Positions 18,636 to 57,505 of a stretch of 64,000 nucleotides of DNA are shown here, piece after piece. The position numbers were made by a program, and so were the translations under genes. The notes below the pieces were generated by a model, which was not told where the DNA came from, made no database searches, and was given only the letters and a program-made list of their open reading frames with translations. How positions within the stretch are numbered: position 1 is the stretch's first letter; every line of letters begins with the position of its first letter. The DNA is from a virus. The stretch is from the IMG/VR virus record IMGVR_UViG_3300023491_000002. One strand, written 5' to 3'.

Positions 18636-18703
18636 GTTCCGCTACGCTTTGCAGACCCCAGTAGGGGAATAGCTTGTGGGGCGTGCGGAACTTCAAACTT
18701 TTT
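18636..18703 (+). terminator. GC-rich conserved element, copy A, in forward orientation. It is enclosed by the inverted repeat GTTCCGCTACGC...GCGTGCGGAAC and followed by CTTTTTT, so it behaves like a terminator for the 782-aa gene.
   Basis: The core GCAGACCCCAGTAGGGGAATAGCTTGTGGGGCGTGCGGAAC lies at 18651-18691, with a T-run at 18698-18703, 11 nt after the stop at 18625. Confidence 0.55.
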
Positions 18704-18728
18704 TACGAATAATTAAATTATTACTGTT

Positions 18729-19412
18729 ATGGTTAAAGATTCTGCTTTGAATGAAAGAGCAACTGCTGTTGAAATTGGTGGTTTAGTTGATGGAGTTGGT
18801 GCACCTGTTATGCGCGCCGGATATGCTTTGAAAGCTAAACCGAGTTGGATCACTTTAAGTGCTGTTGAGGGAACTGGTAACTCTCAAGTAGATGTTACTG
18901 CTCCGGTTTATAAAGGTCGTAACGGGCGTTCTGGTTTGATTACCGTTGCTGTTGAAGATTTGACTGAAGACGTTACTTTGCAGCAGGAAGGTTCTACGAT
19001 TTGGGATGTTACTACTCAATCGTTGGCTTTCGTTAAAACCGGTGAAACTAAGAAGTTCACTGGTAATTCCAATTTAGCTTCTATCACGTTTGCTGTTGAT
19101 TCTGACGCTTCTTCTTGGTTGACTGCCGGTAAATTGGTCGTAAATAAGAAAGAATATAATTCTGGTGCTGAGATTGAAGGTGATCCGGGAGCAGATGATG
19201 TTTACGCTTTTGAAATTACGTTTACCGCTGCTGCTAACCCGACGATTAACACTCGTACCGGTAATATTATCGTAAATGGTCAGAAATACATTGTAACTCA
19301 AGCTGCTGGTGATGCTACTTTGACTGTATCTCCGACTGCATTGACTTTCGCTGCTGCGGGAGAAACTAAACAGATAACGATTACTACGAATACCGCTTGG
19401 ACTATTTCGTAA
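18729..19412 (+). CDS. BACON-domain protein, 227 aa, with layout: BACON C-terminal half, a full BACON-like unit, then BACON N-terminal half at the C-terminus.
   Basis: SWITLSAVEGTGNSQVDV...NGRSGLITVAV...VTLQQ near the N-terminus. Internal ...SSWLTAG...RTGNIIVNGQKYIVTQ. C-terminus TLTVSPTALTFAAAGETKQITITTNTAWTIS. Confidence 0.7.
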   Translation: MVKDSALNERATAVEIGGLVDGVGAPVMRAGYALKAKPSWITLSAVEGTGNSQVDVTAPVYKGRNGRSGLITVAVEDLTEDVTLQQEGSTIWDVTTQSLAFVKTGETKKFTGNSNLASITFAVDSDASSWLTAGKLVVNKKEYNSGAEIEGDPGADDVYAFEITFTAAANPTINTRTGNIIVNGQKYIVTQAAGDATLTVSPTALTFAAAGETKQITITTNTAWTIS

Positions 19413-19433
19413 GTCGTCTGTTAATTTGATTAT

Positions 19434-19472
19434 AGGTCTAATAGGTACTAATGTGCTTATTAGACCTTTTGT
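19434..19472 (+). terminator. Rho-independent terminator: AGGTCTAATA-N14-TATTAGACCT followed by TTTTG.
   Basis: A perfect 10-bp stem 22 nt after the stop at 19412, with a T-run. Confidence 0.6.
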
Positions 19473-19494
19473 TGTATATACAGATATTTAAACT

Positions 19495-19806
19495 ATGGAA
19501 GAAACAATTATTTTTAATCTTTTTAATTCTATAAGTTTTGCGTTTATTGCCATTGTGCTTTTAACTACTTATGGCATTAATGAGATTATCACTAAGATTA
19601 CTAAAAAGAAACTACCGAGATACTTCAAGTCTCTTGTTAGCTTAATCGTAGGTATTGCAACTATGGTGCTTTACTTATACAAATTAGATGCTTCATTGGA
19701 AACGGTGCTGCTATCTTTTCTGATATGTACCTTTGGGTATGATTTAATTATCAAACCTATACTCAAAGCTATAAAACGGCATTTTGCTGATTCTAAAAGC
19801 GTATGA
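19495..19806 (+). CDS. Small membrane protein of 103 aa with three predicted transmembrane helices; holin-like.
   Basis: Three hydrophobic stretches (FNSISFAFIAIVLLTTYGI; SLVSLIVGIATMVLYLY; TVLLSFLICTFGYDLII) with a charged C-terminus. It sits between terminators in a small-gene cluster. There is no catalytic motif, so this is a topology-only call. Confidence 0.4.
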   Translation: MEETIIFNLFNSISFAFIAIVLLTTYGINEIITKITKKKLPRYFKSLVSLIVGIATMVLYLYKLDASLETVLLSFLICTFGYDLIIKPILKAIKRHFADSKSV

Positions 19807-19818
19807 TCGCGGACTAAA

Positions 19819-19856
19819 GGAGTGCTACTGCTAAATTGCGTAGTACTCCCTTTTGT
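19819..19856 (+). terminator. Terminator-like hairpin: GGAGTGCTAC...GTAGTACTCC (one G-U pair) followed by CTTTTG.
   Basis: Seen in the sequence 13 nt after the stop at 19806. Confidence 0.45.
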
Positions 19857-19929
19857 CATATCAAGGAAAATCATTGCTCGCTTAAATCATCGACTAAACG
19901 TTCTATTAATGATTTAAATTCCTTTAGGT

Positions 19930-20151
19930 ATGACACCTGTGACTTATACTAATTTGAATAAATTCTTATTAATTAGAGATATTCAAGAGATTGCTAAAAC
20001 TTATATCAATGATGATAGAAGTTATCGTTGGATTTGGAAGAACAAAATTGCTGACGTATATCATATTGGTTATGTAACTTTTATGAATTACATTAGTGTT
20101 CCCTCTATTAATGCAAAGATTGACGAAGCTATCGCTAAGAAGAAACGTTGA
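19930..20151 (+). CDS. Small hypothetical protein, 73 aa.
   Basis: Isolated short ORF between intergenic hairpins. Its coding status is uncertain. Confidence 0.35.
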   Translation: MTPVTYTNLNKFLLIRDIQEIAKTYINDDRSYRWIWKNKIADVYHIGYVTFMNYISVPSINAKIDEAIAKKKR

Positions 20152-20223
20152 ATATAATGTTCAACTATTGAGTATTAATGTTCATGTTATAAATCATTTC
20201 ATTGTTATCAGTACTAATAGTAA

Positions 20224-20231
20224 TATATTTG
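20224..20231 (+). promoter_or_regulatory. Candidate -7 promoter element TATATTTG upstream of the 20275 gene.
   Basis: Motif read directly 44 nt upstream of the ATG. It is followed by an imperfect hairpin (GTGCATCTC...GAGGTGCAT). The motif is frequent by chance. Confidence 0.2.
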
Positions 20232-20274
20232 TTGTGCATCTCAATGTCGAGGTGCATTAAAATAAATTAATGCT

Positions 20275-20895
20275 ATGAATACTGAAAACGAAACTGGTGT
20301 TAAAGTTCCGAAAGGACAAATTAATTACAACACTGTTGCAGGTTCTTTAGGTCTTGCTGCTTTTGCAGGACTTGGATTGAGAAATTGGTTAGGTAACGGT
20401 AATGGTTCGGTTGCTGCCGGAGCTACTGCTGTTGCTGAAACTCAATTAGTTTCTGGTCTTATGGCTGAACTTGCTAAAGAGAAGTCTGAACGTTATGCCG
20501 ATAATGTAGGTATAAACACGTTTAAAGAGGCTTTAGCTTTAATCAAAGAAGAACGTGAAACTCGTCAAGCTAACGACAAGATTATATTTGAAACTCTTGC
20601 TCGTTTGGATAAGGAATCTGCACTTAACAAACAGGATATTGAAAACTTCAAGAAAGAAGTCGCTCGTGAGTTCAGTGATGTTCGTCACGATTTCAAAGCT
20701 GCTATTGCTATTGAAGCTGAACGTAGAGAATCTGCTGATGAACGTATTTTCGATTATGCAAATTGCAATTTCGTTAAGTACATCAAAAAGATCAATGCTG
20801 CGGAGATTTGTCCGGTTGTTGAGTTAGCGGCTCGTACTGCTGGTCCGGCTGTACCTGATCCTAACGCTCCTATCACTTCTACAGCAAACGCTTAA
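20275..20895 (+). CDS. Hypothetical protein with an N-terminal hydrophobic Gly/Ala-rich segment and a coiled-coil region.
   Basis: VAGSLGLAAFAGLGL segment, then a charged helical region. Confidence 0.55.
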   Translation: MNTENETGVKVPKGQINYNTVAGSLGLAAFAGLGLRNWLGNGNGSVAAGATAVAETQLVSGLMAELAKEKSERYADNVGINTFKEALALIKEERETRQANDKIIFETLARLDKESALNKQDIENFKKEVAREFSDVRHDFKAAIAIEAERRESADERIFDYANCNFVKYIKKINAAEICPVVELAARTAGPAVPDPNAPITSTANA

Positions 20896-20907
20896 TCTTG
20901 AAGTGGT

Positions 20908-21324
20908 ATGACTAACGCAGAACTTGTTGCAGTAGCTGTTGGTAAATGGCTAACACCAATCGTTAAAACTATTGGAGGTGGGATTAAGATTCCTGTTACT
21001 TCTGGTATCGGAAAGTTTATGGGTAGTGTTTTTGGTTTAGACCTTTCTACTTATAATCTTCTGAATGAATTAGATTTTATTATAGAGCCTACACTTGATT
21101 ATATTATTAAGCCTCAGTTGGCTAAGTTATCTAAGTTCATACCTGATGAGCAGATTCCTAAAGTAGTTAATAGCTATCTTGATGCAGCTATTTCTAAAGC
21201 TACTGCTAAAGGTTCTGTGAATCTATTTGGTTTTGAGTTCGAAGCTACTGCTTTTCAAAATCTTAAACGTGAAATTGATAACTCTCTTAAAAATAATGTA
21301 AGTCATGATAAAAGCCCCGCATGA
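20908..21324 (+). CDS. Hypothetical protein.
   Basis: ORF of 138 aa. Confidence 0.55.
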   Translation: MTNAELVAVAVGKWLTPIVKTIGGGIKIPVTSGIGKFMGSVFGLDLSTYNLLNELDFIIEPTLDYIIKPQLAKLSKFIPDEQIPKVVNSYLDAAISKATAKGSVNLFGFEFEATAFQNLKREIDNSLKNNVSHDKSPA

Positions 21325-22797: not shown

Positions 22798-23538
22798 ATG
22801 GCAACACTTAATCAATTAGGAAGTAAGATTTCTAATATATTAGGTAAGCCCGGTGATCATAGCATTCAAGAGAGAGCTAAAGATGCTTGTAAGGCACTCT
22901 TTGCTACTTTTATTCGTCAGAGTATTGAGCGCAATGGTGTAGATGAGGTGCTTAAAGTTAGCTTTAATGTTCCTCTTATCTGCGTTCCGCTTACCGATAT
23001 AGAAAACACATATGCGGGAATTGGTGCTAAAGATATGGTTCTTACTACTGAGCATCGAGTTCCTACACCTTTACGTATGCCTAATGATGCACCTTTTCTT
23101 CATGTTTATACTCAACATGATGATGGGAGTCTTATTACATATAAGTACGCTAATAATAGCGTAGTTCCGCTCCTTACCACAGTCTATTCCCCTACTGGGG
23201 TTTGGGGAGTGTATCAAATCGTTAATGGTAAACTTAAAATTATTATCAAAAATACTCTCAAAAACTTTGAGATTGATGCTAAAAATTATAAGTTTGTAAC
23301 AATCGTGTATGTAGCTGAAAATCCTGCTGAGGTTATCACTATGTATATGGAAGATGATGGCCAAGATATTGAACTTCCGCTTCCTGCTGATATGATAGAA
23401 CGTATAACTTATGAGGTTCTTAGAACTGAATTTGGTATTAAGCCTACAGAACACGAAGTTAAGATTATTAGTGATGCAACTTATGCTCCTAATGATCCTA
23501 ATGGTACTCAACGTTTAATCCATAATAAAGTAGAATAA
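22798..23538 (+). CDS. Hypothetical structural protein.
   Basis: ORF of 246 aa. Confidence 0.6.
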   Translation: MATLNQLGSKISNILGKPGDHSIQERAKDACKALFATFIRQSIERNGVDEVLKVSFNVPLICVPLTDIENTYAGIGAKDMVLTTEHRVPTPLRMPNDAPFLHVYTQHDDGSLITYKYANNSVVPLLTTVYSPTGVWGVYQIVNGKLKIIIKNTLKNFEIDAKNYKFVTIVYVAENPAEVITMYMEDDGQDIELPLPADMIERITYEVLRTEFGIKPTEHEVKIISDATYAPNDPNGTQRLIHNKVE

Positions 23539-24440: not shown

Positions 24441-25194
24441 TTCTAGTGTTGTTATTCATAGGATTATAGAAGATTATGATGTTCATTCTATGGACTTTAT
24501 GACTCGTATTCCTACTTGGATATGTGAAGCTCTTGCTGATTTAAATATTCAACAGCATCTTATTAATGTTGGTAAAGTTATCGACTTTGATGAGTATCGT
24601 TGTGAGATTCCAGAGGGTTGTGAGAATATACGTCTTGTTACAATTAATGGTAAACGTGCGGATTTTACTACTAATCCTGCTCCATTTGAGCATGATGATG
24701 GAAATTATATACCGCTCGCCATTTCATTCCCGATAGGAGTAAACCTTACAGAGAATGTCGTTTTTGACTTCATACAGACGATTTCCGGCAGTTTATATAC
24801 GTATTCGATTAATGGGTCGTATTTGCATTTGAATGTCAGAAAAGGCACGCTAGGTGTCTTATTTCACGGGTTGCCAATGACACTTGACGAGATTCTTAAA
24901 ATCAATGTTCCTCTTATACCTAATAATGATGTTCTTATTGATGCTCTAAAGAACTTTGTTATGATGCGTATTCTTCAACGTAATTACAGGCATCCTGTTT
25001 TAAATCTTAGAGATAGTAATCCTTATACTAATCCGGCACTTGCTTACGATAATGCTAAAATTAAAGTTCGTAATGCTTGTAATAGGCTTACTAAAGATAA
25101 ACGTGATGATTGTAGTAGGTCGTTATTAAACTTCTTAAATATGAAAAATCATTATGTGAACGGCTATGAAAGTAAACGCAGGTCTTTACCCTAA
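24412..25194 (+). CDS. Hypothetical protein.
   Basis: ORF of 260 aa, overlapping both neighbours. Confidence 0.6.
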   Translation: MNTLDQNLISSSVVIHRIIEDYDVHSMDFMTRIPTWICEALADLNIQQHLINVGKVIDFDEYRCEIPEGCENIRLVTINGKRADFTTNPAPFEHDDGNYIPLAISFPIGVNLTENVVFDFIQTISGSLYTYSINGSYLHLNVRKGTLGVLFHGLPMTLDEILKINVPLIPNNDVLIDALKNFVMMRILQRNYRHPVLNLRDSNPYTNPALAYDNAKIKVRNACNRLTKDKRDDCSRSLLNFLNMKNHYVNGYESKRRSLP

Positions 25195-28100
25195 CGCGAA
25201 TCCGTCATTAGTCAATAGTGATACTAAGTCTTATGCACTTAATGTTCTATATAACGAGGATGGTGAGACTCTTATCAATGAAAATGGATTTGAGAAACAT
25301 CATGATTATTCTGATTATGGTCAGTGTATTGGCACCATTCCGATTCCCGTTGGAGTGGTGCTTTTTTTCGTTAATAGAAACGGTGCTAATCCTAGTGTAC
25401 CTGACGGAGATTACATTATATGGCATAGTGATGAAACTATTGAAGGTGATATAAAGTATTCAGATGTTATTTATAAAGCTCCTCTAGTTGGCGATAGTAC
25501 AGTTTTAAATTTCAGTGAAGATCGTCCTATCACTGGTGCTTATTCTTATAATAAAAATAATCATCTGATTATTACTTTTACAGAAGGTAATTCAACTGCT
25601 GCTAATGAAACTCGTTTGATGAATCTTAATACCTTTTGTGATGACTATAATCTTGCAAAAGACTATTCTGATAATACTACGACTATTTACAGCTTAGGTA
25701 TTGATTTAACTAAAGAGAAACTATTGAATCTTATACCTGATGTTGAATATCCTACATTAACAGTTCAGTCTATTGATGGGGGTGGTTTACTTGCAGGCTC
25801 ATATCAATTTGCTATTGCATATAAACTTAAAACCGGAGATTATACTGATTATTCTCTGTTATCTCCTACATACTTTGCTGCACCTAAATACAATGAAAGT
25901 ATTAAAGCTGGTCAGCTTACTTCTCGTAAGTTTCAAATTGATATTACTAATATAGATTCTCAGTTTGATGAATGTAAACTTGGTATTATCTATAAAGGTG
26001 AAGATGAAGAGAAAGCTTACGAGTATGAAAATATTGATATTAAAGGTAAAAATAGTACAACTGTTTATATCAGTGGTATCAATAGTTTGAATATAGTTAC
26101 TCTCAATGATATTGTAATTGGTAATATTTCATATATTAAAGATCAAGCTCATACTAATTTTAATTCACAGCTTATTCGAGCTAATGTTAGTATGAATGAT
26201 ATTACTGGTCTTGACAAGCATATCAAAGATAAAAATCTATGTACTGCTAATGGTCTTAATGGTACTGGTAATATTAAAATTAAAGAAGAATTATTCAAAT
26301 CTGTTGGTGATAAAGGTGACTTTGAAAAGAAAGATCTTTCTAATGATACTTGTATCAAAGATAATGAATACTACTTCTTATATTTAGGTCTTATTGATTA
26401 TAAAGGTAAACTTATTAATGTTTATCCTATTTATAATACTCAAAAGAGTAGTTATTACTTCAAGACTTCTAACTTCAATATGATCGGTAGTGATGGTGCT
26501 GTTAAACATCGTATGTTTAGATTTAAATTCAATCCTACAGATTTCTTTTCTAAACTCTTTAAAGATACTACTAAAATTGAAACTGCTGATGGTCTTGAAG
26601 AAGTTGGAGTTGTTGCTCGTAAACAAATCAAATCTTGGGTTGTTTACATGGCTCAACCTAATAGCTCTAATAGTAATTGGTGTTGTCAATCACTTGTTGT
26701 TCGAGATTTAGCTTATTCTAATGTAGTTGGTAATAACTATAAAGGAGCTTTTGCTTCTCGTGATAGATATAGATTATATCCTCTTGAATATCTGATTGAA
26801 AAGAAGACTATGCCACAAGTTAAAGCTTATAGCGTTCGTAGTGCTTATGAACGTATGACTTGGAGGCATTGTTTCAATCGTCAGAAAAATGATACTAAAA
26901 ATGAAAAAGGAGATGGTTTTGATTTATGGGATGAAGGTGGTGATTTGATTCAATCAGTTCTTCTTTCTGATTCACTTATTGTTAATAGTAGACTTAATGG
27001 ACCTACTATTAAACCTGAATTTATTGCTAATAATAATTCAGCTGTTTCAAATATAGCTGCTGATTCTAGTTATAAATTTAGTAAAAATAATGGTCTCGAT
27101 GATAACGCTATGTTTGATAGTAAATACTATCCGAATGCATGGAATAATAAAAGTTATCAACGTGTTACTATTACTTATAGCAATGGTGACTTACTAGATC
27201 CCGGATTTGAATATAACAAGATATGTAAAGATTATTCTGCTGCTGGTGAGTGGAAAGGTGATGATAATCCAAATAGTCATAGAGATGATAGAACTGTTGC
27301 AAAATTTCAATGGTATTCTATTATTGAAAATAACCGTGCTATTATAGATTGTTACTATCATGATCGTAATGCAGATGATATATTCAAGACTATTGACGTT
27401 TATGCTCAGAATCTTTCTTGTATATCTTCCATTGTTAGAGTTGAATATCATCCCGTAACATATATTGCTACTACAAAAGCTCAATATCTCAAAGGTGATA
27501 CATTTGTTGCATTTATAACTCAACGCTGTGTTGCTCCTGCTGCTGGTTTCCAACATGAAGGGGTTAGTGCTACTATTGCTAATTGTCATAGAATTATCAT
27601 TAGTTATTTTATATTTAGTCGTATGAATCTTCAATGTCGTCATGATGGACTTGGAGTTAATAGTAGTGCTTATAAGATATTCGAACGTAATATTTCTAAT
27701 ACTGCTGAGAATGATATTGAGAAAGCTATTCGTTGGGCTCCTAAGAATAATTACTATCAAGAAGCTGATAACTTAGGTCATGTTAGTTATCCTATTGATA
27801 ATTTTTGGAATACTGAGGATGGTAAGTGTTATGAGACTTCTATGAATTGGGATGGTTTTAAAGACGCTGTTATTATTAAAAAGATTGACGATATTAAAAC
27901 CTTTCCTTCTCGCATTATACGTTCAGATGTTAATCCTAGTGAATCTACTGATATTGGTTGGCGTCGATATAAAGCTGATGCTTATAAAGATGTTTCAATT
28001 CAAAAAGGTGCTATCGAGAATGTTTTATCTGATGATATTGCTTTATATATTCAACAACGATACACATTACTTGTAGCCGCCATTAAAGATACTCTAGATA

Positions 28101-29191
28101 ACAATGATGAAAATACAACTTATGTAGGTACTTCTGATTTGTTTCAACGTGAACCTAAAGAAATTATTTATAGCACTACTGGTAAAATTGGTTGTAACAA
28201 TCGTTTTAGTGCTATTATTACGCATCGTGGTTATCTTGTTTGTGATGTCGAAAAAGGTGAGATTTATCTTGTTAAGAACGATCAAAACGTAAGTGAGTTA
28301 TCCGATTTAGGCTTCAAAGAGTGGTTTAAAGAGCATATTTACGCTAATGCTACTAATCCATTGTCGCATAGTGGATGTTTCTTTACATACGATGAAATGC
28401 ACCAAAGATTTATATTCACTAATAAAATTATAGATAAAAACGGTGTTATTGACTTATATAAGTCTTATTCTATTTCTTACTCATTAAAGACTAACTTATG
28501 GACGTCTTTTCACTCGTATATCGGAGATTATTCATACATTAACCGGCATGGAATCTTCTATATAACTAAAGGTTCTCTTTTTAAGACTGATGCTAAGAAT
28601 AAAGGTATTTACTTTGATGATGTTATTCATCCTAGTGTTGTTCAATTCATTTATGCTACCGAGCCTATTATAAGTAAACTCTTTAAGCATATTGAATGGC
28701 GTAGTCAGCTTATTAATGGTCTTATGAATAATGAAGATAATATACGTTATCTCTATAATAAAACTATTGATTGGTTGATGTTTCATACTGATGTTCAATG
28801 TACAGGTCTTATGCCTATGAGTGTTAGTCCTATTTGGTGGGATAATGAAACTCTTAAATATAAAGCTGGTCGTTATCTTTGGAATCGTATTGAAGATTTC
28901 GTTGAAAATGATCATGGTCAATGGAATCCTAATCCTAATCTTATTAATTTTATGGATAAAGATGCTATTGACACTCTTATTGAACTTTCAGCTAAATATC
29001 AAAAGCCTTGGTATGATATTGCTAAGTTCCATAATGCTTGGACTTATATAACTATGATATATGAGAATAAGTTCTTTAGTCAAGAAGCGGATGATTATGT
29101 AGATAATATTACTAAATATCCTGACGCTACTCAGCTTGATTTAAGACTTACTAATATTGAAGTTATGATTGATAAAGATACTCGTTTATAA
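25166..29191 (+). CDS. Large tail protein of 1341 aa; a tail-fibre or host-recognition candidate.
   Basis: Its size, its position after the small structural genes, and its Asn/Tyr/Ser-rich composition typical of tail fibres. No motif support. Confidence 0.65.
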   Translation: MKVNAGLYPNANPSLVNSDTKSYALNVLYNEDGETLINENGFEKHHDYSDYGQCIGTIPIPVGVVLFFVNRNGANPSVPDGDYIIWHSDETIEGDIKYSDVIYKAPLVGDSTVLNFSEDRPITGAYSYNKNNHLIITFTEGNSTAANETRLMNLNTFCDDYNLAKDYSDNTTTIYSLGIDLTKEKLLNLIPDVEYPTLTVQSIDGGGLLAGSYQFAIAYKLKTGDYTDYSLLSPTYFAAPKYNESIKAGQLTSRKFQIDITNIDSQFDECKLGIIYKGEDEEKAYEYENIDIKGKNSTTVYISGINSLNIVTLNDIVIGNISYIKDQAHTNFNSQLIRANVSMNDITGLDKHIKDKNLCTANGLNGTGNIKIKEELFKSVGDKGDFEKKDLSNDTCIKDNEYYFLYLGLIDYKGKLINVYPIYNTQKSSYYFKTSNFNMIGSDGAVKHRMFRFKFNPTDFFSKLFKDTTKIETADGLEEVGVVARKQIKSWVVYMAQPNSSNSNWCCQSLVVRDLAYSNVVGNNYKGAFASRDRYRLYPLEYLIEKKTMPQVKAYSVRSAYERMTWRHCFNRQKNDTKNEKGDGFDLWDEGGDLIQSVLLSDSLIVNSRLNGPTIKPEFIANNNSAVSNIAADSSYKFSKNNGLDDNAMFDSKYYPNAWNNKSYQRVTITYSNGDLLDPGFEYNKICKDYSAAGEWKGDDNPNSHRDDRTVAKFQWYSIIENNRAIIDCYYHDRNADDIFKTIDVYAQNLSCISSIVRVEYHPVTYIATTKAQYLKGDTFVAFITQRCVAPAAGFQHEGVSATIANCHRIIISYFIFSRMNLQCRHDGLGVNSSAYKIFERNISNTAENDIEKAIRWAPKNNYYQEADNLGHVSYPIDNFWNTEDGKCYETSMNWDGFKDAVIIKKIDDIKTFPSRIIRSDVNPSESTDIGWRRYKADAYKDVSIQKGAIENVLSDDIALYIQQRYTLLVAAIKDTLDNNDENTTYVGTSDLFQREPKEIIYSTTGKIGCNNRFSAIITHRGYLVCDVEKGEIYLVKNDQNVSELSDLGFKEWFKEHIYANATNPLSHSGCFFTYDEMHQRFIFTNKIIDKNGVIDLYKSYSISYSLKTNLWTSFHSYIGDYSYINRHGIFYITKGSLFKTDAKNKGIYFDDVIHPSVVQFIYATEPIISKLFKHIEWRSQLINGLMNNEDNIRYLYNKTIDWLMFHTDVQCTGLMPMSVSPIWWDNETLKYKAGRYLWNRIEDFVENDHGQWNPNPNLINFMDKDAIDTLIELSAKYQKPWYDIAKFHNAWTYITMIYENKFFSQEADDYVDNITKYPDATQLDLRLTNIEVMIDKDTRL

Positions 29192-29196
29192 TTAGT

Positions 29197-29254
29197 GTTG
29201 CTCTTTAACGATCTCCAGACCCCGGTAGGGAAAGAGCTTGTGGTAAGGAGCAAC
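29197..29254 (+). repeat. GC-rich conserved element, copy B, in forward orientation. It is enclosed by the inverted repeat GTTGCTC...GAGCAAC.
   Basis: The core CCAGACCCCGGTAGGGAAAGAGCTTGTGGTAAGGAGCAAC lies at 29216-29254. It is 6 nt after the stop at 29191 and 20 nt before the ATG at 29275. There is no T-run. Confidence 0.55.
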
Positions 29255-29274
29255 ACTCTGCAAATACTATTAGT

Positions 29275-32190
29275 ATGCCAAATAAATATAAACGTACTAA
29301 GGTCGCTGATGATGCTCAAGCTAGACGTCTTCTTATTGATATTTTTACTAAGTATCATCAAAGTAAAGATATTAATAATAGATCTCTAGGTTTAGCTATT
29401 CAAGCTCTTGATAAAGAGAGTAATACTAAAGGTCTTATAGGTCGTCCTGAGATTCATAAGATTGATTCTCTTTATCAAGTCGGTGCACCTGCTCGTGAAA
29501 TTGTTAAGTATATAGCAGAGACTGGTGTTGGTACTAAAGGTTACAATACTAAAGTCTTTACACCTCAACAACTAGCTGATGATGGTGTTATTAAACGTAT
29601 GCGTGATTTTTACAATTATGCTAAGAAGCGTGGTCTTAATCATGCAGCCGCTACTGGTTTAATGTCTATGGTTTATGGTGAGACGTTAAATGATTCGATT
29701 GATGATCTATTTTCATTTAATAAAACTCAAAGAGCTACTGCTAAAGGTGATAATAGAATTGTTAATCATGGTTTATTTAGTTTTGAGAATCTACGTAAAT
29801 GGGATGATAAGAAAGATAAAGGTAAACCTAAAACTAATTGGGTTGAAGATCCTAATTATACTTATGGTAGTTATCAATCTTATCTTAAAGCTAATAAACG
29901 TAAAGATAGTTTAGAATCTCAATTTGATTATTATCTTGATACTTATTTACCTTCTAAAGATAGTAAATTTAGTACAGATAAAGTCAATGCTATGTCGGCT
30001 GAAGATGCTTCTGTTTACTTTATGAAGAATCAAAAACCGGATTTTACTGTTGATTATTCTACAACTAAAACGCTTAGAAGTCGTGCTAACTTCTTATTTA
30101 AATCTGAATTTAATAATGGTGGTATGATTAAAAACATTTCAACTCTTAAAGCTTACCCTCGTCGACGTAAATACGCTGGTGGAGGTGAAGTTGCATTTAA
30201 AGATAGATTCGGGGATGTTCAAGGTCATAGTTATGGAGTCGAGAAAGGTATTCAAGGAGCTTCTACAATGTCTGGTTTAAGTACCGGTGCTACTATTGGC
30301 GGGGGACTTGGGGCTGGAGTTACTGCTGCGGCTGCCGCTGGATCTTCTGCTTTAGCCGGTACAACTCTTGGAGCTTGGGCAGGTCCTATTGGTATGGCAG
30401 CAGGTGCTATTATTGGTGGTATTGTTGGACTGTTTGGAGGTCGTCGTAAGAAACGTAAGGCTAAAAAAGCTGCTGAAGAAGCTGATAGGCAACGTCAGAT
30501 TGTTGCAGGCAATGAACGTATTCTTCAAGATGAACTTAAATTATCCAACACTGCTCAACAAGAAGGTGCTCTTGATATATATGGTGACTCTAATATTACA
30601 GGTGTTACTGGTTATCAAGATGATGCTAGCTTCAATAGTGACTTAGTTCAACCTACTGTTCAAGGTACTCCATTTGGTGATGTTGATCCTAGTTCTGCTT
30701 TTGGTAGAATTGCCGCTCGTTGTGGTGGAAGACTTAAACGTAAACGTTGTGGTGGCAAAGCTAAACGTTATGCTGATGGTGGTATGATTAAAGAAACATC
30801 TTCTAATACCGCAGAAGTTAATGGTCCTTCTCATGAACAAGGTGGTGTTTCTTATGGACCTAATGCAGAAGTAGAAGGTGGTGAAGCTCTTATGACTGAC
30901 GCAGATAATGCTTATGTATTCTCTGATACTTTAAAGTATAATGGAACTACATTTGCTGATCTTGCTAAGCCTCTTATGAAACATAAAGGTTATCTTGAAA
31001 GTTCTCTTCCGGTCAAATCTATGATGCTTGGTAGAATGCTTTCTCTAACTGACCGTAGTACTTATGCAATTGATCGTAATACTAATGGACGTAACGCTGA
31101 GAAAGCTAATGCTGATCTTCAAAGAACTAATGCACAAATTGCTGCAATTCAAAATGAACTCGCACAACTCTATAATCTTCAAGAAAGTATGAAAGCTGAA
31201 TCTGGTATGGAAGCTGAACCTATTGAAGCACGTTGTGGCGGTAAAATTAGAAGATATTATGATGGTGGTCAAATTGTTGATATTCCTATTTCTACTTATG
31301 GTACTCAACGGGATAATAGCGGGAATTATGCTACGGGACAAGAAATAACTTTTACATCTAATGATAAAACTCAAATTCAAAATCCTTTAACTATTATTCA
31401 ACAAGGTTTGCGTTGTGGTGGTAGAACTCGCAAATATGCTGATGGTGGCTTTATAAGTCCGGGATTTGTTTCTGAAGTTGGTGGTAATCTTATTGGTGGT
31501 ATAAGTCAATTTATAACTAATAAAGGTTTAATTGATCGTATGGAAAGTATGCGAGTTCCTGAAATTCCTCTTATGGATCGTGTAGAACTAGAAACTGATA
31601 TAAATACTGACGCTGAAATTGGAGATATTAATAATACTGTTCGTAGTCTTGAAAAATATATTACAAGTAATAGTTCTAATTCTCAAGTTGCTCGTCAGTC
31701 TATATTGCTTGCTAGAACTCAAGGTTCTCGTATGCGTAGTAGAGTTAAACAAGATGAACATAATAAAGAAGTTGAGCTTCGTAATCGTTCTCGTATAGCT
31801 AACGCTGAAATTGCTGCTAGAAATAGTCAAATTAGAGCTGAGAATGAAGCTAATAAATTTAGTCATCAAATGGAAATTATTCAAAAAAGAAGTCAGAATA
31901 GTGCTATTTTATCTAATATGATTTCTAAAATTGGTAGTGCTATTAATTCTACTCAACAACTTAAATTTGATAAAGAAAATCTTCAAAATGAAATGCTTTC
32001 TAATGTAATTAAAGATCAAAATTCTTTATCTTTTGTTGCTCAACATTTTGATGATGAAACTCTAAAAAATTTATTAGGAAGCAATGGTCTAAAAGCTATT
32101 ATTTCTTATCGTAAAAGATTAAATACAAATACCAATCTTACAACAAAAAATAAAACATCTATTAGTAAAAATAGATATAAAGGTATTTGA
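29275..32190 (+). CDS. Virion-associated protein of 971 aa with a Gly-rich transmembrane-like segment and four basic Cys-Gly-Gly/Tyr-Ala-Asp-Gly-Gly repeats. A tape-measure, ejection or cell-wall-acting role is possible.
   Basis: GLSTGATIGGGLGAGVTAAAAAGSSALAGTTLGAWAGPIGMAAGAIIGGIVGLFGG followed by RRKKRKAKK. The repeats are PRRRKYAGGGEV, RCGGRLKRKRCGGKAKRYADGGMI, RCGGKIRRYYDGGQIV and RCGGRTRKYADGGFI. There is a weak SLT-like AATGLM segment near the N-terminus. Confidence 0.65.
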   Translation: MPNKYKRTKVADDAQARRLLIDIFTKYHQSKDINNRSLGLAIQALDKESNTKGLIGRPEIHKIDSLYQVGAPAREIVKYIAETGVGTKGYNTKVFTPQQLADDGVIKRMRDFYNYAKKRGLNHAAATGLMSMVYGETLNDSIDDLFSFNKTQRATAKGDNRIVNHGLFSFENLRKWDDKKDKGKPKTNWVEDPNYTYGSYQSYLKANKRKDSLESQFDYYLDTYLPSKDSKFSTDKVNAMSAEDASVYFMKNQKPDFTVDYSTTKTLRSRANFLFKSEFNNGGMIKNISTLKAYPRRRKYAGGGEVAFKDRFGDVQGHSYGVEKGIQGASTMSGLSTGATIGGGLGAGVTAAAAAGSSALAGTTLGAWAGPIGMAAGAIIGGIVGLFGGRRKKRKAKKAAEEADRQRQIVAGNERILQDELKLSNTAQQEGALDIYGDSNITGVTGYQDDASFNSDLVQPTVQGTPFGDVDPSSAFGRIAARCGGRLKRKRCGGKAKRYADGGMIKETSSNTAEVNGPSHEQGGVSYGPNAEVEGGEALMTDADNAYVFSDTLKYNGTTFADLAKPLMKHKGYLESSLPVKSMMLGRMLSLTDRSTYAIDRNTNGRNAEKANADLQRTNAQIAAIQNELAQLYNLQESMKAESGMEAEPIEARCGGKIRRYYDGGQIVDIPISTYGTQRDNSGNYATGQEITFTSNDKTQIQNPLTIIQQGLRCGGRTRKYADGGFISPGFVSEVGGNLIGGISQFITNKGLIDRMESMRVPEIPLMDRVELETDINTDAEIGDINNTVRSLEKYITSNSSNSQVARQSILLARTQGSRMRSRVKQDEHNKEVELRNRSRIANAEIAARNSQIRAENEANKFSHQMEIIQKRSQNSAILSNMISKIGSAINSTQQLKFDKENLQNEMLSNVIKDQNSLSFVAQHFDDETLKNLLGSNGLKAIISYRKRLNTNTNLTTKNKTSISKNRYKGI

Positions 32191-32246
32191 ATTTAAAATA
32201 ATATAAATCATTATGTTATTGTTAAATGAATTGAGATAATAATTAC

Positions 32247-32285
32247 ACCCTCTATTGTTAATTCAATAGAGGGTATTATTGTTTA
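32247..32285 (+). terminator. Rho-independent terminator: ACCCTCTATTG-TTAATT-CAATAGAGGGT followed by a T-rich tail.
   Basis: A perfect 11-bp stem 57 nt after the stop at 32190. Confidence 0.55.
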
Positions 32286-32301
32286 TATAAATATTTATAT
32301 T

Positions 32302-35244
32302 ATGGCAATTAGATTAAAATATGCAGATCTTACATATGTTTCAATACCTGATGCAAAACAATTAGATTTAAGTTCTTTGCGTTCTTTTGGACAAGCTTTT
32401 ACAGCTACTGCTGATAATCTGCAAGAACGTGCTATTCGTAATGAAAACGCATATAATGAAATGGCTATTAAGATGTCTGAATATAATGCGATTCAAGGTG
32501 CAGATGAAGAAGCTCTTGCAGGTAAAATTAATGAAACTCAAGAACACATTAAAGTTAAAGTTGATGAAGATGGAGGATGGTTCTTTGCTGATACAGCTGT
32601 TAGCGATGGTGCTCGTAGATTTTTAACTGATGAAGGAGTTAAAACTATTCTTGGTAATAAAACTCAATTTGATGCTATGATGCAAGCTAATGAACAATCT
32701 GACGCTTCAGAAGAATATAAAGCATTAAATAGAGCTATGATTCTTAAACGGTTTAATGATGCAGGAGGTAGTTTAGGAGGTAATGGTAAACAATCTATTA
32801 GTTCTTTTGGTACAGCTCTTGGTTCAGGTCATGATAGAGAAGCTTTACGTAAAGAAATGCTTGAATACTTTAAAGCTATGAAATCTGATGAAAAAGTTAT
32901 TTATAGTGAACAATTCCGTAAACAAGCTATAGATTTAATGAATAATCCTACAATTGATGCTGTTACTAAATCTACTCTAAAAACTTTATCTAATCCTACT
33001 CTTCATGGATTTCAAAGTTTTACTAAAACTATCGAAGGTATAGGAGATGATAGATTAATAAATGTTGCTAAAGCCATTGTATCTAACAATAGTAAATTTA
33101 AAAATGCTTTATTAAAAGAAGCAGAATTAAATCTATTTGCTCTAGAACAAAAAGGTATTACACCTAGTAATGCTGTAAAAGACAATATATATTCTACAGC
33201 TTTTACTGATTCTAATATTTTAAAAACTTTAGTAATAAATTCTCCTGAATATAAAAATGCTAATAGTAATGAAAAGATTGTATTGCTTAATGCTATAAAC
33301 AATCCTAATAGTATTTATATAAAAGAATTAATAGATAGAAATTATAGCTTTTTAAATCAAAATCCTAATGAAACTGAATCTGATTATGAAGCTAGATTAT
33401 CTAATTTTTATAAAGCTAATTATATAGATTCTGAAATATCTAATGTGGCTACTTATTTATTGCCTATGAGATATACTAAAGAGAAACTTGATGTAGATAA
33501 TAAATTCTTTGAAAGTCTATTTAATAAGCAACTAGAAAAGTCTGAAGATACTTCTAAAATACTTACTAGAGAAAGAGATGGTTTAGTTGGAACAATAGTT
33601 AATCTTCCTAGTATGACTTCTGAACTAGAAGCAAATCGTAAAACAAGATTACTTAATCAAACTTCTCAACATTCAAGAAATATATCTGAATTAGAAAGAT
33701 TTAATAACTATTTAGCTAAAAAGTCTACTAATGGAGAAAATATAACTAAAGAAGATGAAGATAAATTAAAAGCTCTTAACCTTAGAGTTCAAGAATCTCA
33801 AAGTATAATCAATAACATTCTTTCTGAATATGATGCTTATAAAGGTGGTATTCCAACAAATAAAGAAGATAAAGCAAATTTAAGCTTAGCACTTCAAAAG
33901 AGTATTAAAGAATATTATGATGTATTTAATCGTGTTGGAATTTTTGGAAGTTTAACTAATGTTATCAATGAAGAAACTTCTAACTTAGATGAAAATGGAA
34001 ATCCTATTAAAGGTACAGGCGTTGATCTTAGAGATGATGTTAAATTTAATGCAAATGATAAAACTCAGAAACATATAGATGAATATCTTCATATAAAAGA
34101 TATAAGTTATATATTAAGTAATTCAGATACTCCAGAGGAAGGTATTAAAAAAGCCACAAAGTTTATAAAAAATAGTAGCAAAACTAATCCTTATGTAAAA
34201 GAGTTTGCAGATAATATATCTAAAACATTTGGGGATATTAGTACTGGATTAACTTCTATTCTAATGGGTAATCTGATTGAAAACTATGGTAATGAAACTA
34301 ATATGATTCAGTCTAATCCTGGAGTTGTTATTGGTATATCCAAACCTACAGAAACAGGTATTGTAAGTACTGTTAGAAATAATATAGCTTATAAAATTGA
34401 AAATCATCCTGAAGCATTTACTATTATTGATAATCAATTGTTAGATGATGATGATTTAGAGTTAGATGCTGAATCCGTTGGTGTTCCTATAGATTTGAAT
34501 AATGAATCTCTTAGGAAATTCTTATATACTGAAGATAAAGGTACAGATAAGAACCCTAAATATTCTAAATCAGATATTACTTATGAACTTATGGAATTGA
34601 GTGATGGTCGTAAAGCACTTAATCTTATAAAGAATGTTCAAGGTTTTAATAATGTTAGACAGAAACTCACTATTGTTGCGAATAATGATGCTGATCAGAA
34701 TACTATAGATGAATTTGAATTAGCTATGCGTATGACTTCTGCATTCGATATGGCTGATAGACCTAATGCTGATACAAAATTTATATTTGATGCTATGTCT
34801 ACACATCATGGTGGAAGTTTAACTTTTGGTCCAGATCCTTCCAATGCTATTCAAATGAATGATGCTTCTGCATATAATATTGTTGAATATAATGGAAGAT
34901 ATTATAATAATGTTAAGTCGTTATTAAATGCTTTTGTTAAAAATCCTATAACAAATGTAGATAAAACTATATATCATAATAATTTTAGAATTACATTTAG
35001 TAAAGATTCAAATAATAATTTTACTACTCAAATTGATACGTATGATAGTACAACAAATTCATTTGAGCTTACAGATAAATTTATAAGTGATAATTCTGAA
35101 GACTTTATTAATAATACACAACGTAGATTAAGCGTTATATCATCTATATTAGATTATAAAGATGCTTATAGATTAACTAAAGAACAATTAGATAATCTTA
35201 CTAAGTTTAATGCTAATATGTCTACAGCTAATTTTAATTATTGA
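32302..35244 (+). CDS. Large hypothetical virion protein of 980 aa, Asn/Lys-rich.
   Basis: Long ORF in the tail/ejection block. Confidence 0.65.
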   Translation: MAIRLKYADLTYVSIPDAKQLDLSSLRSFGQAFTATADNLQERAIRNENAYNEMAIKMSEYNAIQGADEEALAGKINETQEHIKVKVDEDGGWFFADTAVSDGARRFLTDEGVKTILGNKTQFDAMMQANEQSDASEEYKALNRAMILKRFNDAGGSLGGNGKQSISSFGTALGSGHDREALRKEMLEYFKAMKSDEKVIYSEQFRKQAIDLMNNPTIDAVTKSTLKTLSNPTLHGFQSFTKTIEGIGDDRLINVAKAIVSNNSKFKNALLKEAELNLFALEQKGITPSNAVKDNIYSTAFTDSNILKTLVINSPEYKNANSNEKIVLLNAINNPNSIYIKELIDRNYSFLNQNPNETESDYEARLSNFYKANYIDSEISNVATYLLPMRYTKEKLDVDNKFFESLFNKQLEKSEDTSKILTRERDGLVGTIVNLPSMTSELEANRKTRLLNQTSQHSRNISELERFNNYLAKKSTNGENITKEDEDKLKALNLRVQESQSIINNILSEYDAYKGGIPTNKEDKANLSLALQKSIKEYYDVFNRVGIFGSLTNVINEETSNLDENGNPIKGTGVDLRDDVKFNANDKTQKHIDEYLHIKDISYILSNSDTPEEGIKKATKFIKNSSKTNPYVKEFADNISKTFGDISTGLTSILMGNLIENYGNETNMIQSNPGVVIGISKPTETGIVSTVRNNIAYKIENHPEAFTIIDNQLLDDDDLELDAESVGVPIDLNNESLRKFLYTEDKGTDKNPKYSKSDITYELMELSDGRKALNLIKNVQGFNNVRQKLTIVANNDADQNTIDEFELAMRMTSAFDMADRPNADTKFIFDAMSTHHGGSLTFGPDPSNAIQMNDASAYNIVEYNGRYYNNVKSLLNAFVKNPITNVDKTIYHNNFRITFSKDSNNNFTTQIDTYDSTTNSFELTDKFISDNSEDFINNTQRRLSVISSILDYKDAYRLTKEQLDNLTKFNANMSTANFNY

Positions 35245-35248
35245 TATT

Positions 35249-57112: not shown

Positions 57113-57137
57113 GGACTTCTGTTGGACTTAAAAAAAT

Positions 57138-57175
57138 GAGAGAGGGCTTTCAGATAATACTGTCAGTCCTCTCTC
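57138..57175. terminator. Hairpin GAGAGAGG-N22-CCTCTCTC, 26 nt after the stop of the 4416-aa gene. It is preceded by an A-run and followed by TTCTTG, so it could work as a bidirectional terminator.
   Basis: Seen in the sequence. On the - strand the hairpin is followed by TTTTTTT. Confidence 0.45.
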
Positions 57176-57220
57176 TTCTTGTATCTATACTACTCATACT
57201 CCTGCTCGTGTCATTGCAAA

Positions 57221-57269
57221 CGCTCCGCCCCGTTCCACATCTATCCCTCTACCGGGGTCTGCAATGCTC
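57221..57269 (-). repeat. GC-rich conserved element, copy D, in reverse orientation, in the convergent intergenic region.
   Basis: Its reverse complement GAGCATTGCAGACCCCGGTAGAGGGATAGATGTGGAACGGGGCGGAGCG aligns with the other copies. Confidence 0.55.
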
Positions 57270-57458
57270 CACAATGCCATTTTTGCCACCTGCGGGCTTC
57301 ATATATTGATTATCTATTGGCAGACGATAACTAGTTCATATTATAAAAGAAAGTGTCTCTATGAGGCTCTATTGAAGTTATCATTATCAAACATTTGCAT
57401 TATTATCACGGCTTATGATAACGATGCAATTTAATTATAATCATAGTAGCATTAGTAA

Positions 57459-57505
57459 CACTTTCCAGACCCCAGTAGGGAACATGGTGTGGTCAGGAGC
57501 GGAAC
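57459..57505 (+). repeat. GC-rich conserved element, copy C, in forward orientation, in the convergent intergenic region.
   Basis: ACACTTTCCAGACCCCAGTAGGGAACATGGTGTGGTCAGGAGCGGAAC. Confidence 0.55.

Follow-up and report, generated by a model that had tools for sequence, protein, structure and literature searches.

A GC-rich element of ~50 nt occurs in ~17 copies per genome in a crAss-like gut phage, and purifying selection acts on its nucleotides themselves, both in intergenic copies and in copies that lie within genes. Eight of the copies are located in the window analyzed here, a stretch of 64,000 nt (Table 1). Our results point to a previously undescribed recognition site. We tentatively favor a predicted function as a cis-acting recognition sequence for a sequence-specific trans-acting factor, probably a DNA-binding protein.

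Distribution of the element

Few human gut viruses are as abundant as crAss-like phages, most of which have never been cultured. To our knowledge, almost nothing is known of their cis-regulatory DNA, and we know of no temperate lifestyle among them. The window phage is crAss-like (Crassvirales), nearest to the Crevaviridae. A megablast search against deposited phages returned no close relatives, and relatives were obtained only via IMG/VR and a large protein collection. The portal cluster of this lineage has more than 9,000 database members, so the lineage is common. Among 40 ORFs scanned against Pfam there was no obvious DNA-binding regulator and no transposase, reverse transcriptase, integrase or recombinase, and ARAGORN identified 0 tRNA or tmRNA genes. 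Nothing in Rfam reached the gathering score, with no match at any copy at E<=1, and a motif pattern scan of the genomes of 185,579 bacterial species hit one contig only, a 94-kb phage genome mis-binned into a MAG. By the Rfam and bacterial genome searches the motif is restricted to the clade of the window phage.

A profile built from 16 paralogous sites and run against the window with nhmmer (E<=10) recovered exactly eight copies, with E values from 4e-15 to 5e-12. The core 12-mer CCCCRGTAGRGG, allowing at most one mismatch, has seven matches against 0.09 expected, a number reached by 0 of 100 shuffles. The sequence-only reading had listed six copies, all of them correctly placed, but it missed G and H, and the range that it gave (18636-57505) leaves out copy E. 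Its description of the copies as GC islands in an AT-rich genome was accurate (53-61% GC in the copies, 33% in the window). Extending the search to the rest of the genome and to relatives, as had been suggested, gave the ~17 copies per genome and found the sites again in relatives. The copies are not an assembly artefact, as dozens of contigs obtained independently carry them at these sites.

Table 1. Positions of the eight element copies in the 64,000-nt window.
Copy	Coordinates	Strand	nhmmer E	Location
E	5772..5822	-	5e-12	In portal gene 4856-7243 (+)
A	18643..18694	+	1.7e-12	Intergenic, after 782-aa gene
G	23161..23212	-	3.6e-13	In crAss Ring-2 tail gene 22798-23538 (+)
B	29207..29259	+	2.4e-12	Between muzzle gene 25166-29191 and 971-aa gene (29275-)
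F	38733..38784	-	7.7e-14	In 2877-aa gene 35210-43843 (+)
H	42766..42816	+	2.7e-12	In 2877-aa gene
D	57219..57269	-	4.1e-12	Intergenic, convergent junction
C	57457..57507	+	3.8e-15	Intergenic, convergent junction

Twelve of the 17 sites are intergenic despite a genome that is 95% coding (enrichment p ~1e-12), and the remaining five are within genes. Intergenic copies occupy short gaps, and 15-36 nt separate them from the start codon that follows. Orientation relative to flanking transcription is ~50:50 (five sense and three antisense among single intergenic copies, two sense and three antisense among coding copies). The eight window copies alternate in orientation (-+-+-+-+), but the alternation fails just outside the window (P4-/E-, C+/cl16+, cl1+/cl4+) and is absent in the related phage cr127_1. 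Inverted doublets or pairs are formed by B-/B+ in L210, D/C, P3/P4 and cl1/cl2, and the similarity network among copies is star-like.

Copy A lies 18 nt after the stop of its upstream gene, which is of the BACON/Flg_new type, and 34 nt before the next start; copy B lies 16 nt after the stop of the 1341-aa gene. The sequence-only reading had placed A, B and C just 3' of long genes, which is true of A and B. C is 345 nt beyond the 4416-aa gene, and only 37 nt separate it from the 3' end of 57544-57888, a convergent gene on the minus strand. Copy D lies between the 4416-aa gene and C, 107 nt past the stop of that gene; D and C make up an inverted pair, with 187 nt of spacer between them. This spacer has the same orientation in 15 genomes, with no inversion. 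The inverted repeats reported around A and B are real and form long hairpins from flanking complementarity (18636-18691, fold z=-3.64, and ~29194-29257, z=-3.43). The T-run after A is also present, although it starts ~8 nt beyond the stem. A separate palindrome with a 10-bp stem (CTAAGCATAG...CTATGCTTAG, 57505..57538, pi 0.011) abuts C; it is outside the repeat family and is probably a true bidirectional hairpin between the convergent gene blocks.

Selection on the nucleotides and concerted change

Intergenic copies exhibit a pi of 0.012-0.029, compared to 0.10-0.12 in adjacent non-coding DNA, and thus change 4-10 times more slowly (copy A, 0.012 vs 0.10-0.11 in its flanks; copy D, 0.026 vs 0.117 in the spacer; copy C, 0.029 vs 0.117). 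Substitutions between orthologues fell in 9/125 family-conserved columns as compared to 35/145 variable ones (p=2e-4), and at copy C 0/25 family-conserved columns are variable. A 27-nt core of copy B is identical between module variants that are only ~65% identical.

Within genes the constraint is visible at third codon positions. Copy E is antisense to the portal gene (portal by phrog_6547), where it encodes ..QNAAPYHSLPSTGVLKAR..; its GC3 is 0.61 against 0.20 in the portal gene, and pi at its third positions is 0.22 against 0.41 in the flanks. Copy G, antisense to the Ring-2 gene (PF25702), encodes ..VVPLLTTVYSPTGVWGVY.. and has 8/18 variable third positions vs 164/228 (p=0.029), with 18 nt invariant in five lineages. 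For E and G combined, third codon positions vary at 16/36 as compared to 682/1000 outside the copies in these genes (p=0.0057); codon positions 1 and 2 are slightly more variable than elsewhere, not significantly so for G. At shallow divergence the coding copies exhibited no avoidance of family-conserved columns (12/50 vs 13/58), a result on motif constraint that was overturned by the deeper sampling of third positions in E and G. Codon-based selection tests on these genes would be misled at the motif patches.

The copies that overlie genes add no length to the proteins examined. The portal at copy E exhibits no net length change relative to eight other genera (a loop of 74 aa vs 71-80 aa), Ring-2 at copy G aligns gap-free with its cr127_1 homologue, and the UDG segment under a copy is 25 aa vs 26 aa in T. 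maritima. An origin of the coding copies by simple 45-nt insertion was rejected on these grounds. The same-length overlay on coding sequence is not readily answered by transposition or by ordinary point mutation. We also rejected a peptide-level motif (LPxTG-like), because intergenic copies exist, sense and antisense peptides differ and third positions are constrained. In the 2877-aa protein, copy F (antisense) encodes ..SSAPDQSLPPTGGYKAQ.. and copy H (sense) encodes ..NSLTPDREGAVEGSGT... Both sites are occupied in L123, L213, L214 and L215, F at the same protein position (aa ~1140-1175).

The peptide of copy H aligns column for column with the peptide of cr127_1's own repeat family in the orthologous protein; the H-site region was not recovered from other genera, where this protein block is too divergent. 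The cr127_1 family looks different and its copies are nearly identical to one another; in the giant protein and in UDG they occupy positions that match those of the window family. Two relatives of cr127_1 were found, both occupied. Sequence homology between the window and cr127_1 families is marginal (p ~0.03) and orientation-inconsistent, and we therefore claim only positional coincidence.

The sites are persistent. Lineages at 65-75% nucleotide identity still carry the element at sites E, A, G, F and H: E in relatives down to 75% portal identity, and A in all relatives including the deep lineages J, K, X and M. A site-by-genome survey yielded one empty site against ~220 occupied, with no lineage-specific new sites in the regions compared. 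The empty site is in L106, where copy B has been precisely lost (45 nt); its 32-nt core lies between 13-bp direct repeats and the empty site keeps one repeat. At site B, L209 has an AT-only hairpin and no element, L210 carries an inverted doublet and the copy in L212 is decayed. In most relatives site C has site-specific terminal direct repeats (GAAACGCTAAG../GGAAC-TAAG..), which are degenerate at most other copies.

Copies within one genome also change together. Identity is 70.1% between same-genome paralogues and 66.7% between different-site/different-genome pairs (p=2e-4); orthologues are at 75.7%. In genome X, 7/7 copies alignable at the column read GAGG where the window has GTGG, two of which were predicted beforehand; in genome K the column-specific prediction failed (0/2). 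In genomes M and K the copies share variants of the CCCC run that are particular to each genome. The change within a lineage is concerted and column-specific. Since orthologues retain site-specific signatures, the copies are not being converted wholesale; gene conversion between them now and then could look like co-evolution.

A proposed trans-acting factor and alternative readings

A sequence-specific partner had already been proposed by the sequence-only reading, and it is the best reading of motif-level purifying selection combined with concerted change across the copies of a genome. The factor would be encoded by the phage (or the host) and would most probably act on double-stranded DNA. 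Concerted change would then reflect co-evolution with the specificity of the factor, as for T7-group promoters and their RNA polymerase or Cluster A stoperators and their repressor, and the sites may act at gene junctions by modulating transcription or DNA transactions. A new intergenic copy seems to originate in a duplicative event, with terminal direct repeats of 9-16 bp left behind. Several points argue against a trans-acting factor: site B is dispensable (L106 has lost the element, L209 lacks it and in L212 it is decayed), the Pfam scans of the 40 ORFs gave no obvious DNA-binding regulator, the coding copies at shallow divergence did not avoid family-conserved columns, the prediction for genome K failed, gene conversion could resemble co-evolution, and a non-palindromic site of 50 bp is long for a single DNA-binding protein. 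The LAGLIDADG endonuclease of the terminase intein was rejected as the partner, as intein-less relatives keep the elements. It is possible, although doubtful, that Crevaviridae-type phages in general carry ~10-17 genome-wide sites for a putative factor, in gaps and over essential genes (portal, tail ring, giant virion protein, UDG) at unchanged protein length, the set being rewritten in concert until sister genera differ unrecognizably. A new short-patch copy-and-overwrite mechanism might be involved too. If this broad reading is correct, the sites would form a new regulatory or architectural layer in a phage group that ranks among the most abundant of the human gut. The motif is a handle on the putative factor, as bait for pull-down or DAP-seq and through lineage states that can be correlated with protein sequence.

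The sequence-only reading had also raised a family of miniature mobile insertions. In its developed form, which we consider unlikely, a non-autonomous element would have spread anciently, leaving terminal target-site duplications, and would persist today mainly as a fixed relic whose copies are kept similar by occasional ectopic gene conversion and not by function. The single repeat retained at the L106 empty site and the terminal direct repeats with site-specific bases at C are what target-site duplication in MITEs or GC clusters leaves behind, and a GC-rich sequence that lies chiefly between the genes of an AT-rich genome, pointing either way, with inverted doublets or pairs and a star-like network, fits the same origin, as does the near identity of the cr127_1 copies, which resembles the outcome of a recent burst. 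Rickettsia palindromic elements are a further analogue named for such a relic. The presence/absence polymorphism and lineage-specific sites of such elements were not found; there is one empty site among ~220 observations, and sites are stable to 65-75% identity. The consensus has neither terminal inverted repeats nor a palindromic body, complementarity being confined to the flanks of A and B. A relic should decay, yet the intergenic copies evolve slowly and their family-conserved columns are protected. The coding copies tested (portal, Ring-2, UDG) are not net insertions, site-specific signatures are kept, the 40 ORFs encode no recognizable transposase, reverse transcriptase or integrase, and the bacterial genomes scanned are without the element.

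That the sense intergenic copies function at the RNA level, as a terminator, attenuator, RNase processing site or mRNA-stabilizing 3' end, is improbable. A and the window-type B are strong hairpins just after long genes (z ~-3.5), A with its nearby T-run; the hairpin at site B is built in three ways in three lineages (flank complementarity, inverted doublet, AT-only palindrome); and at the convergent junction C and D are each sense to the block that reaches the junction last. These features do not extend to the family. RNAalifold predicts 0 pairs for 16 paralogues, and cl13, cl4, cl1, P3, P4 and the variant B fold like shuffled sequence (z ~0), in agreement with the earlier view that primary sequence and not hairpin potential is conserved. 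The general role in termination, pausing or processing that had been suggested alongside is not supported, given the ~50:50 orientation, with three single intergenic copies antisense to their flanking genes, and the five copies inside genes, among which the sense copies H and cl2 would truncate essential transcripts. A simple terminator scan flagged none of the copies (A, B, C and D included), although the genome has canonical terminators at other places, one of them upstream of cl16 and separate from it; Rfam likewise offers no RNA family at these sites.

A promoter family for a phage RNA polymerase, such as the giant virion-packaged one, would co-evolve with that enzyme, and its antisense copies would produce regulatory antisense RNAs. 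The ~17 copies, their similarity within a genome and their lineage-specific concerted change resemble the promoter families of T7, T3 and SP6, some T7 promoters lie within coding sequence, and the intergenic copies here end shortly before start codons. We regard this function as quite improbable, since half of the copies would fire antisense to late structural genes and melting is not favored in a GC-rich element. In the crAss-like phage phi14:2, early transcripts of the virion polymerase have no common upstream motif, and the middle and late promoters belong to the host sigma type (10.1101/2020.03.07.982082). This pattern counts against a promoter family for the virion polymerase.

There is very little probability that the copies serve other DNA transactions, as recombination or gene-conversion hotspots or in Chi-like protection, priming or packaging. 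Their G-rich block GGTGTGG..GGAGCGG resembles Chi sequences such as GCTGGTGG and AGCGG, but Chi sites are 5-8 nt, not 50. The window orientations alternate, and the GC clusters of yeast are recombination hotspots (PMC8811140). The alternation does not hold outside the window or in cr127_1, the copies are not at mosaic boundaries, and no relative has an inversion or deletion between copies.

Four further candidates were rejected: mosaic-boundary linkers (boundaries at ~18.3, 19.5, 20.1/21.6, 25.3 and 32.4 kb are away from the copies), an inverton or shufflon at D/C (constant spacer orientation in the 15 genomes, collinear relatives, no recombinase in the 40 ORFs), a DGR (no reverse transcriptase in the 40 ORFs or in the cr127_1 annotation, variation beyond A positions, A34 invariant) and a host-derived repeat or CRISPR-repeat mimic (motif absent from the bacterial genomes scanned).

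Comparison with known systems

What defines REP/BIME, ERIC, Correia-type repeats and T4-type PeSL cassettes is a palindromic structure or terminal inverted repeats, and we know of none of these families that lies in frame in essential genes with nucleotide-level constraint. Like them, the window element is a dispersed intergenic repeat that can be recruited as a hairpin, terminator or protein-binding site, as A and B seem to have been. The mosaic-boundary position predicted for PeSL was tested, and the window copies do not have it.

T7 promoters span 23 bp, with an AT-rich melting region, and every one is oriented along transcription; some are within genes. The window family shares with T7-group promoters ~10-20 near-identical sites per genome, some in genes, and a whole set that shifts between related phages; it differs in pointing both ways.

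The mobile GC clusters of yeast mitochondria (and 'byp' elements) are short and GC-rich, with terminal repeats read as target-site duplications (PMC8811140). The resemblance lies in the AT-rich genome, the mostly intergenic positions, the occasional in-frame copies in protein genes, and here the 13-bp repeat with its empty site. The yeast clusters form palindromes, vary greatly from strain to strain and lengthen var1, whereas the window element is non-palindromic, almost fixed, under purifying selection and adds no length in portal, Ring-2 or UDG.

Stoperators of Cluster A mycobacteriophages are 13 bp long and predominantly in one orientation relative to transcription, and the motif variant of each lineage tracks its cognate repressor (PMC6550527). 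The window element is ~50 bp, GC-rich and without an orientation rule, lacking the single orientation of stoperators and T7-like promoters alike, and Pfam scans of the 40 ORFs recognized no repressor or lysogeny module. In common with stoperators, it consists of many dispersed asymmetric copies, mostly in short intergenic gaps and also in genes, and the motif at its ~17 sites co-varies with lineage through concerted states.

Distribution and placement of the element

A profile HMM trained on 16 paralogous sites identifies exactly eight copies of a ~50-nt GC-rich element in the window, with nothing weaker up to E=10. They comprise the six copies listed by the sequence-only reading, all found where it had placed them, and two new ones. 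The profile search that it had proposed for the rest of the genome and for relatives gave, with all hits clustered by their flanks, 17 orthologous sites per genome, of which the window contains eight and the other ~30 kb nine. GC content is 53-61% in the copies as compared to 33% in the window, the consensus is approximately GAGCTTTGCAGACCCCAGTAGGGAAnAAGGTGTGGTAnGGAGCGGAAC, and the core CCCCRGTAGRGG with at most one mismatch has 7 matches (0.09 expected by chance).

Copies of the GC-rich element in the window
Copy	Position	Strand	Location and orientation	Remark
E	5772-5822	-	portal gene, antisense	
A	18643-18694	+	intergenic, sense	
G	23161-23212	-	Ring-2 gene, antisense	new; absent from the sequence-only reading
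B	29207-29259	+	intergenic, sense	
F	38733-38784	-	gene for 2877-aa giant protein, antisense	
H	42766-42816	+	gene for 2877-aa giant protein, sense	new; absent from the sequence-only reading
D	57219-57269	-	intergenic, sense to flanking gene	
C	57457-57507	+	intergenic, sense to flanking gene	

Scanning IMG/VR for the exact pattern gave 92 stretches on dozens of 45-95-kb contigs, several on each. The one match among 185,579 bacterial and archaeal species (one genome each) was a 94-kb contig within a MAG, itself a distant relative of the window phage; the element is therefore specific to this phage lineage, and an origin as a host repeat or CRISPR array was rejected. No tRNAs were found, Rfam gave no match to the copies at either the gathering score or E<=1, and literature searches on crAss-like phages turned up no report of such an element. 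The element is real, commoner than at first counted, and confined to this phage clade.

The coding fraction of the window is 95.1%, and 4/8 window copies (p=3.5e-4) and 12/17 genome sites (p ~1e-12) are intergenic, largely filling the short gaps that hold them. Intergenic copies start 0-18 nt past the upstream stop (81 nt for cl16, which is positioned downstream of a separate canonical terminator) and stop 15-36 nt short of the next start. Elsewhere in the genome, single intergenic copies are sense to the flanking genes at cl13, as at A-D, and antisense at cl4, cl1 and cl16; among coding copies cl2 is sense, as is H, and E, F and G are antisense. The strand order of the window copies alternates strictly (-+-+-+-+, 5772-57507; chance probability ~1/128), a pattern that breaks just beyond the window and is not present in the related phage cr127_1; it is possibly due to chance. 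No coincidence of copies with mosaic boundaries was seen, and an inverton at D-C was rejected, since the spacer is inverted in 0/15 genomes and all relatives are collinear.

A ~950-nt non-coding region upstream of the structural block in two related contigs (L079 1745-2691 and L208 700-1100) contains a convergent pair, P3/P4, and possibly serves regulation or replication; the corresponding region of L206 has two copies that are divergent. The ~78 nt immediately left of C (57379-57456) correspond to an unrelated ~68-nt stretch in most near-identical relatives, and this replacement stops at the element edge. In the window lineage 10 nt are missing from the left direct repeat of C.

Host genes were identified from precomputed Pfam hits on the relatives' orthologues: G lies in the crAss tail Ring-2 gene, the 1341-aa gene preceding B encodes the muzzle protein, and A is flanked by genes for BACON/Flg_new fibre-like proteins. 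cl2 lies in a gene for a family-4 UDG. The portal, assigned via phrog_6547, is 40% identical to that of cr127_1 (uncultured phage; Crassvirales, Crevaviridae, Kahucivirus) and shares 22-28% identity with other crAss-like portals. A 798-aa portal homologue, P0011, is a chimera of an N-terminal half of a ~44%-identity genus type and a C-terminal half nearly identical to the window portal; it arose by natural recombination or through chimeric assembly. Together, the muzzle gene and the 971-aa gene after it make up an exchangeable module with sharp boundaries (25294-32420), 65-70% identical between genomes that are otherwise 97-99% identical, which suggests exchange of a host-range cassette. A 101-aa protein (61756-62061, -) has a Tad2-like (Thoeris anti-defence 2) domain (E=1.6e-9) and its gene neighbours MazG, ThyX, DUF3310 and DUF932 genes; in L206 a Sequestin/Tad2-like gene is called upstream of the terminase (6159-6872).

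Selection on the nucleotide sequence

Conservation lies in the primary sequence and not in hairpin potential, as first proposed: RNAalifold found 0 consensus pairs over the 16 paralogues. Good folds occur only in A (z -3.6) and window-type B (z -3.4), because their left flanks became complementary to the right end of the element; these are the two copies first described as enclosed in local inverted repeats. Folding of cl13, cl4, cl1, P3, P4 and variant B was no better than that of shuffled sequence. With no consensus fold and no Rfam match, a structured RNA was rejected. The suggested terminator role was not supported as a general one, as a simple terminator scan flags 0 of A-D and antisense and coding copies exist. 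Classical intrinsic terminators on the + strand, with 14-15-bp stems and a T-run directly after, are present at 19434-19467, downstream of a gene ending at 19412, and at 25331-25362, just within the start of the muzzle gene.

Among close relatives, intergenic pi is 0.012 for A, 0.029 for C and 0.026 for D, as compared to 0.117 for the D-C spacer and 0.101 for the gap right of A. Orthologue substitutions fell in 9/125 family-conserved columns versus 35/145 variable columns (p=2e-4). At shallow depth the coding copies gave no constraint signal (12/50 vs 13/58). With deep sampling, pi at codon positions 1/2/3 was 0.28/0.20/0.22 in E and 0.24/0.16/0.41 in flanking portal codons. Third positions of G were variable at 8/18 vs 164/228 (p=0.029), and 18 nt of G are invariant across all codon positions in five lineages; pooled third positions were variable at 16/36 vs 682/1000 (p=0.0057). 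GC3 is 0.61 in E and 0.20 in the portal. High GC3 in E and the constrained third positions of the coding copies place selection at the level of the DNA or RNA, not of the encoded peptide, and an LPxTG-like peptide motif was rejected.

Across seven genomes, identity was 75.7% between orthologous copies, 70.1% between paralogues of the same genome and 66.7% between copies at different sites in different genomes, the first two exceeding the last (p=5e-12 and p=2e-4, respectively). Site signatures persist, such as CCCCAGTAGGGGAATAGA, kept by G everywhere, and particular columns change genome-wide. Deep relatives N, O, X, J, K, M and L215 (65-75% nucleotide identity) were recovered via a large protein collection. 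The T in GTGG of the window clade is A in 5/6 copies of X (the sixth is gapped there) and in 3/4 copies of J, and in M CCCC has become CTACC or ACAACC in A, G and B. Column states predicted for the then-unseen F and H copies were borne out in X (GAGG, 2/2) and failed in K (GAGG instead of GCG), where F, H and B+, one arm of the doublet at site B, have a common K-specific change, GCTCCCGGTAGG.

Site turnover and a second family in cr127_1

The coding copies tested are not simple insertions, as the portal, Ring-2 and UDG segments show no net length gain. The portal loop holding E spans 74 aa between solid anchors, as compared to 71-80 aa in eight motif-free genera (Intestiviridae portals are longer here, and the internal alignment of the loop is ambiguous). 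The Ring-2 segment aligns to cr127_1 without gaps, and CxxC and the GE.PG-type motif of the cl2 UDG are 25 aa apart versus 26 aa in the T. maritima enzyme. Simple insertion does not account for a 50-nt motif overlying existing coding sequence.

Occupancy extends to N, O and X for E, to J, K, X and M for A and G, and to J, X, K and L215 for F and H; the upstream non-coding pair was found in X and N. The labile site is B, with one copy in X, an inverted doublet in K and a decayed element in M. In J/L209 (16764-16898) the GC-rich element is absent and an AT-only palindrome takes its place, perfect over its 21-bp arms (GTATCTCTATATATAATATAT...ATATATTATATATAGAGATAC), which suggests that some hairpin is favoured at the junction of the muzzle and next genes. 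B is precisely missing in L106, which reads ACTT-AGAGGAACTCTGT-TAATA where the occupied site reads ACTT-AGAGGAACTCTGT-(32-nt core)-AGAGGAACTCTGT-TAATA, the only empty site in ~220 site-by-genome observations. Most copies have degenerate direct repeats (GGAGC/GGAAC-TYTGY), and those of C in most relatives contain site-specific bases; together with the empty site they resemble target-site duplication or repeat-mediated precise deletion. The earlier suggestion of miniature mobile insertions agrees with the direct repeats and the one empty site, and poorly with the near-fixed sites and with the coding copies tested, which are not net insertions. From the terminal direct repeats, the one precise loss and the inverted doublets, a duplicative mechanism can probably both create and remove copies. 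The same features favor a purely selfish relic of a mobile element, which fits the constraint data poorly and which we consider unlikely.

The cr127_1 genome has no match to the window-family profile and carries its own ~40-nt GC-rich element, ACGAATTTCGGAACACCTCTCGCCCTTGTGGCCATTAAAC, in at least 10 copies; the exact 13-mer has 8 matches (0.33 expected). The layout is that of the window phage, with sense single intergenic copies, coding copies, and pairs in inverted orientation separated by 160-190 nt. Of its three coding copies, two lie at equivalent protein positions: the giant-protein peptide aligns column for column with that of H, and in the UDG the copy falls between CxxC and the GE.PG-type motif, as does cl2. 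Similarity of the two consensuses is marginal (p ~0.03) with no single consistent relative orientation, and we therefore claim positional coincidence, not homology. In cr127_1 a ACAACTGTCTTT tandem repeat, of different copy number in the relative L204, follows the intergenic element downstream of the UDG (11940-11975), and the DNA polymerase (12271-15205) is annotated as two CDSs ~620 nt apart, suggesting an intron or other intervening sequence.

Candidate partner and related systems

Fixed sites, intergenic enrichment, orientation independence and the lack of a shared fold, combined with nucleotide selection in coding and intergenic copies, concerted column changes and persistent site signatures, point to a recognition sequence. 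Our tentative reading is that the element is recognized by a co-evolving trans-acting factor, most simply a DNA-binding protein. The sequence-specific partner first suggested is thus the best-supported reading, on the strength of nucleotide selection and concerted column change. The putative factor would read the element and co-evolve with it, and copies would be made and lost duplicatively.

Pfam scans of 40 ORFs, from the minus-strand block of the window and ~30 kb outside it, identified ThyX, MazG, Tad2-like, DUF932, ligase, SF1 helicase and UDG, with a sub-threshold RecT-like match, and no reverse transcriptase, transposase, integrase or Cas1. The large terminase (1445-4855, +; 1136 aa) has an intein that comprises Hint and LAGLIDADG homing-endonuclease domains (aa ~358-629). 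This intein is polymorphic in the clade, present in the L207 orthologue (1138 aa) and missing from those of L206 and L208 (~800 aa). Its endonuclease was rejected as the partner because intein-free relatives keep the elements.

RNA-level, promoter and recombination roles are possible, with lower probability; a study of phi14:2 reports virion-polymerase promoters without a common motif, and middle and late promoters of host type (10.1101/2020.03.07.982082). Constraint and concerted evolution both give strong signals, which makes the proposed recognition directly testable. T7-group promoters change along with their polymerase, the same co-evolution logic as proposed for the element. Stoperators of a repressor, dispersed sites that co-evolve with their cognate factor, follow it too (PMC6550527), and the duplicative traces are reminiscent of mitochondrial GC clusters (PMC8811140). 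The element is akin to known dispersed phage cis-elements, yet differs from each in defining features.
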